Positions 30,408-62,947 of a stretch of 64,000 bases of DNA are shown in pieces. The position numbers and the translations under genes are program-made. Origin of the DNA: Eledone cirrhosa (lineage: Eukaryota); contig OZ024744.1 in the NCBI GenBank assembly GCA_964016885.1, forward strand, positions 94,240,001-94,304,000, read 5' to 3'. Within the stretch, counting starts at the first letter, position 1; every line of letters begins with the position of its first letter. The notes below the pieces were generated by a model. It was not told where the DNA came from and did not search any database. It saw only the letters and a list, made by a program, of their open reading frames with translations.

Positions 30408-31022
30408 GTCAGGTCACCAGTTGGTGCTACTGGTAACATGTATCCCAGTACAACCTGTCCCATGGTCGGGTCGTTGGCGACTAAACTGGCAACCCCACCA
30501 AGGTTTCTTGGTGAGGAGGGTGACTTTGGACATCCTGCAGGACTAAAAACAAAACCTGTCAAAGGGCAAAGGAGCTCTTTAGAGTCAATGGCCATCCAAA
30601 ATCACTGGGAGAGATGACCCCTTAGACTTTGTCAAGGCAGAATTCTAGGAGAAGGAAAACTCTGATATAACACCTGCAACCCTGATGGTATCCAATGATG
30701 TTGACTTGTTCTTCTTTTTGGTAAATATTATCTTGGTTAAGAGAGTGGGACTGGCTTTGTGCAGTGCCTTTGCTCACTATAAAAGCTTCACGGCACAGGC
30801 ATTGCTTTATATCTGGAGATCTCTGATCTCTCTGCACTTGTCGTCACATGGTACCATGGGCCCAGCACTATGTGTCAATAATTGTCACAGGTGTAGTGTT
30901 TGTACCAGAGTTTTCAAGTCGCTGGCTGGACTAAAAAGTCACACTCGTTCAGCGCATTGGTAGGAGTTCTCCTACATGGATATAAAGTAGTGGCCGTACT
31001 CGAAAACGAGTTGGCAGCCACC
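30408..31022 (+). mobile_element. Non-autonomous bipartite RTE-derived element (family D), longest copy
   Basis: 5' part resembles RTE 5' UTRs (TAAACTGGCAACCCC, AGGAGAAGGAAAACTCTGA). 3' part encodes a C2H2 remnant [22 protein letters not shown] and a terminal stem-loop ACTCG-AAAA-CGAGT. Four near-identical copies in the window. Confidence 0.8.
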
Positions 31023-33912
31023 ATATATATATATGTATATATGTATATATATGTATATATATGTATATGTATATATATATGTATATGTATATATATATAT
31101 ATATGTATATGTATATATATATATATGTATATGTATATATATATATATATGTATATATATATATATGTATATATATATATGTATATATATATATGTATAT
31201 ATATATATGTATATATATATATATGTATATATATATATGTATATATATATATATGTATATATATATATGTATATATATATATATGTATATATATATGTAT
31301 ATATATATATATGTATATATATATATGTATATATATATATGTATATATATATATATGTATATATATATATGTATATATATATATATGTATATATATATAT
31401 GTATATATATATATATGTATATATATATATGTATATATATATATATGTATATATATATATATGTATATATATATATATGTATATATATATATATGTATAT
31501 ATATATATGTATATATATATATATGTATATATATATATGTATATATATATATGTATATATATATATATGTATATATATATATATGTATATATATATATGT
31601 ATATATATATATGTATATATATATATGTATATATATATATGTATATGTATATATGTATATATATATGTATATATATATGTGTGTATATGTATATATGTAT
31701 ATATATATGTATATATATATGTGTGTATATGTATATGTGTGTATATATATATGTGTATATATATATGTGTGTATATATATATGTGTATATATATATGTGT
31801 ATATATATATATGTGTATATATATATGTGTATATATATATGTGTATATATATATATGTATATATATATATGTATATATATATATGTATGTGTATATATAT
31901 ATATGTATATATATATATGTATATATATATATGTATGTGTATATATATATATGTATATATATATATGTATATATATATATGTGTATATATATATATGTGT
32001 ATATATATATGTGTATATGTATATGTGTATATGTATATATATGTGTATATGTATATATATGTGTATATGTGTATATGTATATATATGTGTATATGTATAT
32101 ATATGTGTATATATATATATATGTATATATATATATGTATATATATATATGTATATATATATATATGTATATATACATATATATATATATATGTATATAT
32201 ATGTATATATATGTATATATATATGTATATATATGTATATATGTATATATATGTATATATATGTATATATACATATATGTATATGTATATATATGTATAT
32301 ATATATATATGTATATATATGTATATATATGTATATGTATATATATGTATATATATGTATATGTATATATATGTATATATATGTATATGTATATATATGT
32401 ATATATATATATATGTATATACATATATGTATATATATATATATATATATATATGTATATATATATATATATATGTATATATATGTATATATATGTATAT
32501 ATATATATATGTATATACATATATGTATATGTATATATATATATGTATATACATATATGTATATATATATGTATATATATATATATATGTATATATATAT
32601 ATATGTATATACATATATGTATATGTATATATATATATGTATATACATATATATGTATATATATATATATGTATATATATGTATATATATGTATATGTAT
32701 ATATATATATGTATATATATGTATATGTATATATATGTATATATATATATATGTATATACATATATGTATATATATATATATGTATATATATGTATATAT
32801 ATGTATATATATATATATATGTATATATATGTATATATATGTATATATATATATATGTATATATATGTATATATATGTATATATATATATATATATATAT
32901 GTATATATATATGTATATATATATATATATATATATGTATATATATATGTATATATATATGTATATATATATATATGTATATGTATATATATATATATGT
33001 ATATATATATGTATATATATATATATGTATATGTATATATATATATATGTATATATATATGTATATATATATATATGTATATATGTATGTATATATATAT
33101 ATATGTATATATATATATATGTATATATATATATATATGTATATATATATATATGTATATATATATATATGTATATATATATATATGTATATATGTATGT
33201 ATGTATATATATATATATGTATATATGTATGTATGTATATATATATATATGTATATATATATATATGTATATATGTATGTATATATGTATGTATGTATAT
33301 ATATATATATGTATATATGTATGTATATATATATATATATATGTATATATATATATATGTATATATGTATGTATATATATATATATGTATATATATATAT
33401 ATGTATATATGTATATATATATATATGTATATATATATGTATGTATATATGTATATGTATATGTATATATGTATATATATGTGTGTATATGTATATATAT
33501 ATATATGTGTGTGTATATATATGTGTATATATATATATATATATATGTATATATATGTATATATATATATGTATATATGTATATATATATATGTATATAT
33601 ATGTATATATGTATATATATGTATATATATATGTGTGTATATGTATATATATGTATATATGTATATATATATATGTATATATATATATGTATATATATAT
33701 ATGTATATATATGTATATATGTATATATATATATGTATATATATATGTATATATATGTATATATGTATATATATATATGTATATATATATGTATATATAT
33801 GTATATATATATATGTATATATATATATGTATATATGTATATATATATATGTATATATGTATATATATATGTATATATGTATATATGTATATATGTATAT
33901 ATATATATGTGT
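31023..33912. repeat. (TA)n/TATG microsatellite array
   Basis: Direct reading. Confidence 0.95.
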
Positions 33913-34278
33913 ATTTACTATCTCTAATCCTTCTATAGATTTAGAAAAATAACCAATAATATATTCTATAAAAAATGTCAAAACAACAGATGGGAATCTA
34001 ATTAATCACTGCCACCAAGAATTCTCACTGCTATCGAAAAACCACTCCTTCAACTATTCTTCTAACAACTTCACCCCTTCCTCCTAATATTCTCTATAAA
34101 AACTAAATAGGTCCTCAGTAATATTATTCTGATGAAATGACAGTAAACAATAACATTGAAATATTGAATGTCTGCATAACTAAAAGTTTGTAGATAGCTG
34201 TTTTAGGTTATGTAACTGTTATAGAAACACGTGTCAATAAATTCCTTTCAACTAAACTGTATCCATTCAAATCTTTCT
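33913..34278 (+). mobile_element. Probable decayed Penelope-type terminal repeat (TATA, hammerhead-like core, AATAAA)
   Basis: TATAAAA 34095; CTGATGA 34129-34135; stem AATG/CATT; GAAA 34158; GTC 34170-34172; AATAAA 34236. Stem I pairs poorly. Confidence 0.45.
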
Positions 34279-36625
34279 ATATGTGTATATATGTATATAT
34301 ATATATGTGTATATATGTATATATATATATGTGTATATATGTATATATATATATGTGTATATATGTATATATATATATGTATATATATGTATATATATAT
34401 GTATATATATGTATGTATATATATGTATATATATATATGTATATATATATATGTATATATATGTATATATATATATGTATATATATGTATATATATATAT
34501 GTATATATATGTATATATATATATGTATATATATGTATATATATATATGTATATATATGTATATATATATATGTATATATATGTATATATATATATGTAT
34601 ATATATGTATATATATATATGTATATATATGTATATATATATATGTATATATATGTATATATATATATGTATATATATGTATATATATATATGTATATAT
34701 ATGTATATATATATATGTATATATATGTATATATATATATGTATATATATGTATATATATGTATATATGTATATATATATATATGTATATATGTATATAT
34801 ATGTGTGTGTATATATATATGTATATATATATATATGTGTATATATATATGTGTGTATATATATGTGTATATATATATGTATATATATATGTGTGTATAT
34901 ATATGTGTATATATATATATGTATATATATATGTATGTATATATATGTGTATATATATATGTGTATATATAGATGTATATATATATGTATGTATATATAT
35001 ATGTATATATATATATGTATGTATATATATATGTATATGTATATATGTATATATATGTATGTATATATATATGTATATATATATATGTATGTATATATAT
35101 ATATGTATGTATATATATATCTATATATGTATATGTATATGTATATATGTATATGTATATATGTATATGTATATATATATATGTATATATATATATGATA
35201 TATATATGTATATATATATATATGTATATATATATATGATATATATATGTATGTATATATATGTATATATATATATATGTATATATATATGTATATATAT
35301 ATATGTATATATATATGATATATATATGTATATATATATATATATATATATGATATATATATGTATGTATATATATGTATATATATATATGTATATATAT
35401 ATGTATATATATATGTATATGTATATATATGTATATGTATGTATATGTATATATATGTATATATATATATGTGTATATGTGTATATGTGTATATGTATAT
35501 ATGTGTATATGTGTATATGTATATATATATATATGTGTATATGTATATATATATATGTGTATATATATATGTATGTGTATATATATATATGTGTATATGT
35601 ATATATATATATGTATATATGTGTATATGTATATATATATATATGTATATATATATGTATGTGTATATGTATATATATATATGTATATATATATGTATGT
35701 GTATATGTATATATATATATGTATGTGTATATGTATATATATATATATATGTATATATATATGTATATGTATATATATATGTATGTGTATATGTATATAT
35801 ATATATGTATATATATATGTATATATATGTATATATATATATATATGTATATATATATATGTGTATATATATATGTGTATATATATATATATGTGTGTAT
35901 ATATATATGTGTGTATATATATATGTATATATATATGTGTATATATATGTGTATATATATATATATGTGTGTATATATATACATATGTGTGTATATATAT
36001 ATATATGTGTGTATATATATACATATGTGTGTATATATATATATATGTGTGTATATATATACATATGTGTGTATATATATATATATGTGTGTATATATAT
36101 ATATATATGTGTGTATATATATATATGTGTATATATATATATGTGTGTATATATATATGTATATATATATATGTATATATATGTGTATATATATATGTAT
36201 ATATATGTGTATATATATATATATATATATATGTGTATATATATATATATATATGTGTGTATATATATATATGTGTGTATATATATATATATGTGTGTAT
36301 ATATATATATGTGTGTATATATATATATATATATGTGTGTATATATATATATATATATATATGTGTATATATATATATATATGTGTGTGTGTATATATAT
36401 ATATACATGTGTGTATATATATATATATATATGTGTGTATATATATATATATATATGTGTGTGTATATATATATATATATATGTGTGTGTATATATATAT
36501 ATATATGTGTGTATATATATATATATATATATATATATATGTGTGTGTATATATATATATATATATATATATGTATATATATGTATATATATATATGTAT
36601 ATATATATATATATATATATACACA

Positions 36626-62119: not shown

Positions 62120-62237
62120 ATTGTTATACTTGGGGAGGGTCATATTTGTGTAATATTGCCAGAATTAATAACAGAACACACTCACTGTTTGGTTGGTTTT
62201 CGCTTCTCGCTGTCTTTTATATCTGTAATCTAGCTTA
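62120..62237 (-). mobile_element. Island ending in a variant of the shared terminal motif
   Basis: Minus strand ...AACCAACCAAACAGTGAGTGTGTTC...ATGACCCTCCCCAAGTATAACAAT. Confidence 0.6.
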
Positions 62238-62393
62238 TATGTATATGTGTATATATATGTATATGTGTATATATGTGTGTATATGTGTATATATGTGTAT
62301 ATATGTGTATATATATGTATATGTGTATGTGTATATATATGTATATGTGTATATATATATATATGTATGTATGTGTGTATATATATATATGTA

Positions 62394-62947
62394 TCTCATG
62401 GTCGGTTCGTTGGCGACTAAACTGGCAACCCCACCAAGGTTTCTTGGTGAGGAGGGTGACTTTGGACATCCTGCAGGACTAAAAACAAAACCTGTCAAAG
62501 GGCAAAGGAGCTCTTAAGAGTCAATTGCCATCCAAAATCACCGGGAGAGATGACCCCTTAGCCTTTGTCAAGGCAGAATTCTAGGAGAAGGAAAACTCTG
62601 ATATAACACCTGCAACCCTGATGGTATCCAATGATGTTGTCTTGTTCTTCTTTTTGGTAAATATCATCTTGGTTAAGGGAGTGGGACTGGCTTTGTGCAG
62701 TGCCTTTGCTCACTATAAAAGCTTCACGGCACAGGCATTGCTTTATATCTGGAGATCTTTCTGCACTTGTCGTTACATGGTACCATGGGCCCAGCACTGT
62801 CAATAATTGTCACAGGTGTAGTGTTTGTACCAGAGTTTTCAAGTCGCTGGCTGGACTAAAAAGTCATATTCGTTCAGCGCATCGGTAGGGGTTCTCCTAC
62901 ATGGATATAAAGTAGTGGCCGTACTCGAAAACGAGTTGGCAGCCACC
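62394..62947 (+). mobile_element. Family D copy 4
   Basis: Near-identical to the other copies, same 3' end. Confidence 0.9.

Follow-up and report, generated by a model that had tools for sequence, protein, structure and literature searches.

Family D, a bipartite LINE derivative found almost always in TA or TGTA simple repeats of the Eledone cirrhosa genome

Non-autonomous derivatives that join the two ends of a long interspersed nuclear element (LINE) and have no open reading frame (ORF) are reported only from RTE, Ingi, Vingi and R2, and the 5' untranslated regions (UTRs) of RTE and Vingi also end up in the bodies of short interspersed nuclear elements (SINEs) (PMC5786205). Here we describe a further element of this kind, family D, in a stretch of 64,000 nucleotides from Eledone cirrhosa (assembly GCA_964016885.1, contig OZ024744.1, positions 94,240,001 to 94,304,000 of the forward strand; hereafter the window). 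Family D is derived from a LINE that we call E', joining about 428 nt of its 5' UTR to its last approximately 177 nt, and was probably copied into TA/TGTA microsatellites by the endonuclease and reverse transcriptase (RT) of E' or of a sister LINE, E. Like the non-autonomous members of RIME/ingi, NARTc/L1Tc and Bov-A/Bov-B and the derivatives of Vingi-1_EE, D consists of the 5' and 3' ends of a LINE, has no ORF and outnumbers its full-length parents. Unlike them, it has a parent with three C-terminal C2H2 fingers, it keeps 38 codons, and it occupies one type of microsatellite.

Two published models relate LINEs to simple sequence repeats (SSRs). For DONG in (TAA)n and TRAS in telomeric repeats, the SSR is a pre-existing target; for the RTEs of Lepidoptera, the SSR between the target-site duplications (TSDs) is newly made, and insertion shows no sequence specificity (PMC2887409). 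As with DONG and TRAS, nearly all D copies occupy a single kind of simple repeat, share one orientation and have repeat on both sides. Here, though, that repeat is (TA)n/(TGTA)n, and it is mainly a deletion derivative that travels as passenger. Further LINEs that reportedly target repeats are Waldo, Mino, Kibi and Koshi. The system also resembles the lepidopteran RTEs, in its single ORF with an apurinic-endonuclease-like (APE) domain and RT, its very short 3' UTR, its many 3' fragments beside SSRs and the slippage at its 3' end, but the SSR at D is mostly part of the TSD and stands on both sides. Of the two models, targeting of a pre-existing repeat is the one that mainly fits D.

Two other systems share features with this one. 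Naiads have a (TA)n insertion bias that hides their TSDs, and encode a GIY-YIG endonuclease and a telomerase-like RT (PMC8557442). D likewise shows a strong (TA)n bias, is present in very many copies and forms tandem or inverted arrangements, whereas its LINE has an APE domain and a LINE-type RT. UnaL2 and UnaSINE1 form a stringent LINE–SINE pair with a common 3' stem-loop and a (TGTAA)n-type tail. Here too a stem-loop directly before the junction is common to the autonomous LINE and its passenger, with recognition being putative, but most D copies have no tail of the (TGTAA)n type of their own. In SSR-rich shrimp genomes, transposable elements carry (AT)n (PMC7878876). A limited literature search found no RTE-like LINE that targets (TA)n/(TGTA)n. 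Family D is a well-defined addition to two known kinds of element, the bipartite non-autonomous LINE and the microsatellite-targeting LINE.

TA/TG-type repeat makes up 61% of the window, which is broken by about 30 fragments of other elements and includes a 200-N gap. Within it, the 33-mer GTGGCCGTACTCGAAAACGAGTTGGCAGCCACC occurs four times on the plus strand with 0 mismatches, ending at 31022, 36991, 39339 and 62947 (0 expected from 100 shuffles). These are the 3' ends of four copies of D, all on the plus strand: copy 1 (30408..31022) is full length at 615 nt, and copies 2 (36626..36991), 3 (38776..39339) and 4 (62394..62947) are 5'-truncated at about D positions 239, 45 and 53, so that by alignment and in the raw sequence no two copies share a 5' end. 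Pairwise identity over the shared 3' part is 93.5–98.3%. Copy 1 alone has a private 7-nt duplication, and it carries a 4-nt insertion, TATG, that is also found in copy 3. All four elements end ...GGCAGCCACC and pass directly into ATATAT..., with neither poly-A nor (GAT)n. Since other LINE families in the window do have tails of their own, the lack of any tail other than the repeat is a real property of family D. Copy 1 lies between a TA/TG array on its 5' side (27851..30398), which is its probable landing site and has no complex segment in that range, and a TA/TG array of simple repeat on its 3' side (31039..33909).

No coding capacity for an RT or an endonuclease was found in D. The longest frame is 75–104 amino acids, and its sole Pfam match is a single C2H2 finger (zf-C2H2, tested on copy 4: 25.6 bits for a cut-off of 25.2, E-value 1.5e-5), which in copy 1 lies at 30892..30957. 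Apparent open frames of 671 and 196 amino acids over D copies were rejected as read-through of TA/TG repeats.

The parent was reached in the 3.0-Gb assembly, from whose contigs the loci numbered with L below were taken. An ORF scan of all loci taken yielded LINE frames ending ...C.LC.R.F.SLAGLKS..., like the finger of D, and a second D-like 3' end in L007, which runs upstream into another finger, led to E'. A direct search for longer proteins ending like the 75-residue frame of D returned none. In L146, E' spans 4,072 nt (2616-6687) and has a single ORF, a 482-nt 5' UTR and a 59-nt 3' UTR. D positions 1-417 match the E' 5' UTR at 97.1% (L146:2616-3032 and L141:3334-3746), beginning with the same first bases, GTCAGGTCACCA, and D positions 436-615 match the E' 3' end at 94.4–97.2% in six E' copies (97.2% for D 436-614 in L146), finishing on the same last bases. 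Between these D-like ends, L146 carries a 3.5-kb frame with APE, RT and three C2H2 fingers, 55–58% identical to E; the E' copy in L141 has the same ends and a deletion in the RT. E' gave 8,751 candidates at first look, a count that, like the other first-look counts given here, is loose.

Read base by base, the internal junction of D, ...CTGCACTTGTCGT|CACATGGTACC..., joins base ~428 of the 5' UTR to the 38th codon from the end of the ORF, with the boundary uncertain by about 3 nt owing to a GTCA/TCA microhomology. In copy 1, 30408..30845 therefore corresponds to the first ~428 nt of the 482-nt E' 5' UTR and 30846..31022 to the last ~177 nt of E', namely 38 codons, the stop and the 59-nt 3' UTR; within the latter part lie the remnant of the third and last C2H2 finger of E', at the coordinates given above, and the terminal stem-loop with the last base of the element (30990..31022). 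D and E' have their reading frame and stop codon in common, and the finger differs only by one conservative residue just upstream. With the 5' end of a LINE, the 3' end of the same LINE, no endonuclease or RT, and 5' truncations together with TSDs, D has the features that define bipartite LINE derivatives. It is a non-autonomous, bipartite (5' UTR plus 3' end), ORF-less internal-deletion derivative of E'.

A preliminary description of the window, made from its sequence, had reported four near-identical plus-strand copies with staggered 5' ends and a common 33-mer end leading directly into (AT)n, all of which the alignment reproduces, and had seen in the element no RT and only a C2H2 remnant, in agreement with the ORF list and the Pfam match. 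It had also proposed that the element is a non-autonomous bipartite LINE derivative, that the remnant is an ORF C-terminus and that the autonomous partner lies outside the window. These proposals are borne out: the ends of D are the 5' UTR and 3' end of E', the remnant is the last finger of the E' ORF, E has no DNA match in the window, and E' was found elsewhere in the genome, where full-length copies with the same ends lie in L146 and L141. The term "four-copy" holds within the window and fails genome-wide, since the genome gave 40 scored DNA matches and 150 scored peptide matches.

The sister family E is abundant (64,363 candidates at first look), and its best 150 scored matches are 96–100% identical. 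Its ORF, of 1,182 amino acids from the first Met, combines an APE domain and an RT with three C2H2 fingers (Pfam Exo_endo_phos 1.1e-11, RVT_1 5.6e-31), and an open frame of at least 1,190 amino acids is present in 67 of the 91 E-type rows of a search with the E' N-terminus. The last 52 residues of E align with D at 46% identity over 52 amino acids (tblastn E-value 1.2e-5), D aligning with the last E finger, and identity this low makes E a relative of the parent and not the parent itself. The E 3' UTR is about 300 nt long with internal (TG)n, (TA)n and (ATT)n runs (L125-L127), and four of five aligned E copies share more than 500 nt further upstream, with internal simple repeats. E has a deletion derivative of its own, D2, in which the ORF-proximal part of the E 5' UTR and the last 40 nt of E are preceded by an extra 5' domain; this domain was not found in the E copies examined. 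As a separate observation, E and D2 contain an internal repeat at a place, about D position 196, where 5' truncation of D copies is frequent, and in L127 (oriented 5988-6349) a 5'-truncated D copy lies inside the internal 3' UTR repeat of E.

The last 33 nt of D, E', E, D2 and a third family form the same two-part stem-loop, GUGGC...GCCAC around ACUCG-AAAA-CGAGU in D, where it is present in the centroid fold. The consensus structure of D, E, D2 and the third family has 9 pairs. The first, outer pair is G-C in D and E' and A-U in E, D2 and the third family, and this single compensatory pair lends modest support to a conserved stem-loop.

Family D lies at many places in the genome. With the last 143 nt of copy 1 as query, all 40 scored matches are at 99–100% identity, on many chromosomes, and the 75-residue frame of copy 4 gave a best 150 scored matches at 88–100% identity, with 81,173 loose first-look candidates. 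We examined 90 loci, comprising the 30 best DNA matches and 60 picked among the best 150 peptide matches, which together hold 108 D 3' ends. Dropping 15 ends that have more than 3.2 kb of flank in common with one kept, and 1 end lacking an upstream flank, left an independent set of 92 copies. The full-length 5' start GTCAGGTCACCA is present in 16 of the 30 loci from the DNA search, and most full-length copies measure about 608 nt. Identity to copy 1 is 99.5–99.8% for two copies on other chromosomes, and the youngest D copies are 99.5–100% alike. Many more distinct 5' ends occur among the 108 genomic 3' ends, recurring near D positions 41-55, 196-206 and 239-245. Inverted 5' pieces were seen in L033, L091 and L134, the instances including an E' copy, and D copies often stand head to tail, one in the short repeat of another and 10–46 nt apart, as in L038, L059, L060 and L089. 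No D copy was found in 200 kb of random genome, where three matches at 84–85% belong to D2.

Public sequencing runs also contain the family. Between 38 and 57% of the sampled 31-mers of D are present in public-run contigs labelled with at least 15 organisms, and a D contig in four public runs has about 9 differences over about 598 nt and does not have the 7-nt duplication of copy 1. Contigs this similar indicate that family D is common to several related organisms, nearly unchanged. An older, third relative of D, at 74–83% identity and with a decayed ...SLAGLKSH... frame, occurs in L021:1667-2219; its end is ...GGCATTACTCGAAATTGAGTTGCAGCCATC, and the sequence after it, ATAGATCGG, is no TA/TGTA run.

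The landing site is unusually strict, being almost always a TA or TGTA simple repeat. The letters that follow the D 3' end are ATGT in 45 of the 92 copies, ATAT in 42 and other in 5, two of the latter being a repeated ACC and then ATGT. An [AG]T run of at least 10 nt is present downstream of 79 copies and upstream of 72, and in none of the 92 was a tail other than the repeat seen. As a control, we used 20 random 10-kb stretches (L093-L112; 200 kb in total), in which TA/TG-type repeat makes up 7.2% of bases (9.1% with both strand types), ATGT or ATAT comes after 4.3% of positions, and a run of this kind begins at 2.4% (binomial P ~1e-112). Where repeat flanks the copy on both sides, its type is the same upstream and downstream in 54 of 69 cases. 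Orientation is equally constrained: the G-bearing strand of the repeat is the sense strand in 45 of 45 copies followed by ATGT, and the complementary ACAT type follows none. Independently of D, 7.2% of TA/TG-type repeat in random sequence is high for an animal genome.

The junction ...CACC|AT(G/A)T is common to D, E', E and D2. E' is flanked on both sides by (TGTA)n in L146 and L141, and the 20 distinct E/D2-type ends are followed by ATGT (13), ATAT (2), a repeated ATC and then ATGT (4) or ATGG (1). The last trinucleotide is reiterated as ACC in L011, L091 and L145 and as ATC in 4 of the 20 E ends, which points to slippage at initiation. Separately, a further repeat, beginning TTCTGGTTTTATAATTTCAC...ACCAATAGAGAGAGTCGGTTTCTAACATAGA, stands just 3' of D or E' copies in L009, L040, L051, L059, L067 and L144, always with (ATGT)n before it; it may be a minus-strand element with an (ACAT)n tail of its own that D and E' have entered.

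Whether the repeat was a target or is a tail can be read where the TSD contains non-repeat letters, as it does in seven copies. In five of them the TSD starts at the last base of the element: ATGTATGTAC in L005, (ATGT)4CGCTCAGAG in L014 (with 4 filler bases at the 5' junction), about 40 nt with CCGA as its last letters in L046, ATGTGTGCATGT in L052 and ATGTAAGTATGTA in L040. Nothing was therefore added at these loci. TSD length is about 10–40 bp (L005, L014, L046, L052 and L008). In TGTA contexts the join is in phase, ACC|ATGT, in 32 of 41 copies. The TA/TGTA repeat is thus likely to be mainly a pre-existing target and not the tail of D, with short (AT)n added in a minority of cases.

The strongest alternative holds that the TA/TGTA repeat is D's own 3' tail, with an RNA that ends in (UA)n and an insertion that seeds or lengthens an array each time. 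The lack of any other tail in 92 copies is what it would expect, and the lepidopteran RTEs with SSR tails provide a precedent (PMC2887409). Several observations favour it and at the same time weigh against a purely pre-existing target: in L008, 25 nt of (AT)n, (AT)12A, separate D from a TSD of (TG)n(TA)n; in L025, the period-8 repeat (TATATATG)n stands upstream and pure (AT)18 downstream; 9 of the 41 TGTA-context copies begin with 2–5 AT units; TGTA upstream with TA downstream occurs in 13 copies and the reverse in 2; and the upstream run is missing in 20 of the 92. The 13-to-2 asymmetry and the leading AT units together indicate that some tail addition is real, and (AT)n was added in a minority of loci, L008 and probably L025. 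As an account of the repeat in general, however, an own tail appears improbable, given that the repeat is also present upstream in most copies and mostly agrees in type, that no repeat separates element and TSD in L005, L014, L046, L052 and L040, that most TGTA joins are in phase, and that full-length copies lie in tails of only 10–14 nt (L038, L089).

Other points to be set against targeting of a pre-existing repeat by E' or E concern the sample and the mover. The sample is biased toward the best DNA and peptide matches, and the random control amounts to only 200 kb. At L003, no joint across the insertion (an empty site) was found in the contigs of four runs, which carried D. No intact E' was found either: in a search with the N-terminal 355 residues of E', the open frames of the 24 E'-type rows, from 23 loci, reach at most 933 amino acids, and the longest E' open frame among 150 scored C-terminal matches is 626 amino acids. 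As the youngest D copies are nearly identical, either an intact E' was missed by the searches or D is moved by E. Movement in trans by E, about 57% identical to E', is thus one candidate explanation and a missed intact E' the other.

Two further identities for D are very unlikely: a SINE whose head comes from a small RNA, and a non-autonomous Penelope-like element (PLE) of the Naiad type. Naiads do combine a (TA)n preference with tandem or inverted arrangements and tens of thousands of copies (PMC8557442). Head-to-tail D–D pairs with 10–46-nt spacers and inverted pieces exist as well. The window also contains, at 43906-45065 on the plus strand, a 317-residue frame with YRDD and then FLDV...YRKP...HP, which has no Pfam match at E-value <= 0.01 and presumably resembles the C-terminal half of a Penelope-like RT. 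The 3' end of this fragment is unlike that of D, however, and all of D is made of the two ends of a LINE that encodes an APE endonuclease together with a LINE-type RT. A small-RNA head was rejected because the 5' part is a LINE 5' UTR; ARAGORN found no tRNA in the window, and on copy 1 every Rfam hit stayed below its gathering score, the best being a miRNA model at 26 bits on the TA flank. A Penelope-like derivation was rejected because the parent has APE and a LINE RT, not GIY-YIG and a PLE RT.

That segmental or array duplication produced the four copies in the window, as might be thought from their plus orientation in one 32-kb stretch of similar TA/TG array and from the spread of one D copy elsewhere within a duplicon of more than 3.2 kb (16 loci, 96–99.9% alike), is practically excluded by their staggered 5' ends (D positions 1, ~239, ~45 and ~53), their differing private indels and their differing immediate flanks. 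The preliminary description had named copies outside TA arrays with other tails, and flanks shared by duplication, as results that would contradict it; none of the 92 tabulated flanks shows another tail, 79 have a downstream run, and the differences among the window copies are those of independent insertions. Its further proposal, that the TA repeat is the element's own growing 3' end, survives for a minority of loci (L008, probably L025), and is contradicted by 5 of 7 informative TSDs and by the upstream repeat in 72 of 92 copies.

The duplicon is an observation in its own right. Sixteen loci (L042-L044, L048, L049, L064, L072-L080 and L090) are alike at 96–99.9% over more than 3.2 kb of flank, which makes them one D copy spread within a larger unit. 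They lie on contigs C1, C2, C3, C4, C5, C6, C11, C12, C13, C14, C18, C21, C24, C27 and C1499, on at least 14 chromosomes, and the D variant inside the unit ends GGCAACCACC. Several occurrences are 0.1–2 Mb from contig ends (C5:134.67/134.73 Mb, C6:102.52/102.58 Mb and C18:43.86/43.93 Mb). The unit looks like a dispersed duplicon, perhaps subtelomeric, or a larger composite element.

By analogy with described LINEs, insertion of D could proceed as follows. The D RNA would be transcribed from the inherited 5' UTR, and a LINE protein may bind its 3' stem-loop in trans. The nick by the APE domain would then fall at a T^A step of the (ACAT)n/(AT)n strand, and the freed ...AT-3' end could prime at the very end of the RNA, which would carry no more than a few additional AU units. 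A second nick 10–40 bp downstream would leave the repeat after the element as mostly duplicated target. Reverse transcription would often halt early and sometimes switch strand, giving truncated and inverted pieces. The three C-terminal C2H2 fingers may help to choose the repeat, or may act on the RNA.

A bolder and rather doubtful extension of this scheme would have the three fingers of E and E' steer the APE domain to one strand of (TGTA)n/(TA)n, with D as a natural 0.6-kb "donor" RNA that can be moved in trans even by a 57%-identical enzyme. Insertions might then duplicate or extend repeats, and new copies might enter the repeats of older ones, so helping to build the TA/TG arrays that make up ~7% of the genome and 61% of the window.

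The C-terminal finger is, judged from sequence, a hallmark of the E/E' lineage. Among the 120 public homologues that match E best, 119 have at least one C2H2 motif in their last 200 residues (61 with one, 10 with two and 48 with three), and in the 40 homologues listed the last finger lies 0–40 residues from the end and reads C..C....(K/R)S.AGLKSH.R.H. All 1,426 public relatives of E are named "hypothetical" or "uncharacterized", one of them being from an amphioxus hybrid. Matches to E in PDB are only the L1 and R2 RTs, and matches in the ESM Atlas are generic APE plus RT clusters, one with zf-C2H2 in 52% of its members.

Placement of the lineage is less firm, and the RTE label of the preliminary description, which had the ORF2 proteins of BovB-type RTEs end in such a C2H2 motif, is a candidate one. 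E and E' have RTE-like features, namely their compactness, one ORF that encodes both APE and RT, the short 3' UTR of E' and a C-terminal RLRW.GH...DR..WR segment, and E scores 130–171 bits against the RTE-like families of this genome, through that segment, versus 90–93 bits against CR1-like families, through the RT core only. The end of the RTE-like ORF in the window (21381-21926) lacks a C2H2 finger, and the BovB ORF is not known to end in one. For E, Vingi appears to be an equally possible clade beside RTE. The available parts of PMC13708176 and PMC5753468 contain no statement on Vingi fingers or tails. In L1Tc, the two C2H2 motifs are reported to have nucleic-acid chaperone activity (PMC2805920).

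Together, E with many intact copies, its decayed sister E' and the 0.6-kb deletion derivative D make up a three-part system at one landing site. It ties a high-copy retroposon to a genome unusually rich in TA/TG microsatellites, and it allows targeting of simple repeats to be tested against seeding. Compact single-ORF LINEs with an APE domain are being developed as RNA-delivered tools for gene insertion, for which dispersed integration is a safety problem (PMC13708176). A related natural element that strongly prefers non-coding microsatellites, together with a minimal RNA mobilised in trans, would reveal which parts of the protein and RNA set the target.

Several other LINEs are present in the window. 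The 3' part of an RTE-like LINE lies on the plus strand at 21016-22314, with a PHD finger (Pfam 4.2e-7), no C2H2 motif and a (GAT)n tail at 22314, and a related fragment lies on the minus strand at 25545-25850. A pair of LINEs of one family with APE and RT stands in opposite orientation within the TA array, on the minus strand at 47395-50213, with a (GTAAAAGA)3 tail at 47395, and on the plus strand at 39862-41608; one of the two has a 912-residue open frame. Finally, a 5'-truncated LINE RT on the minus strand at 55658-57337 (Pfam RVT_1 6.6e-32) has a (ATTCAAAGTT)2 tail at 55658, and its family is also present in the random stretch L093.

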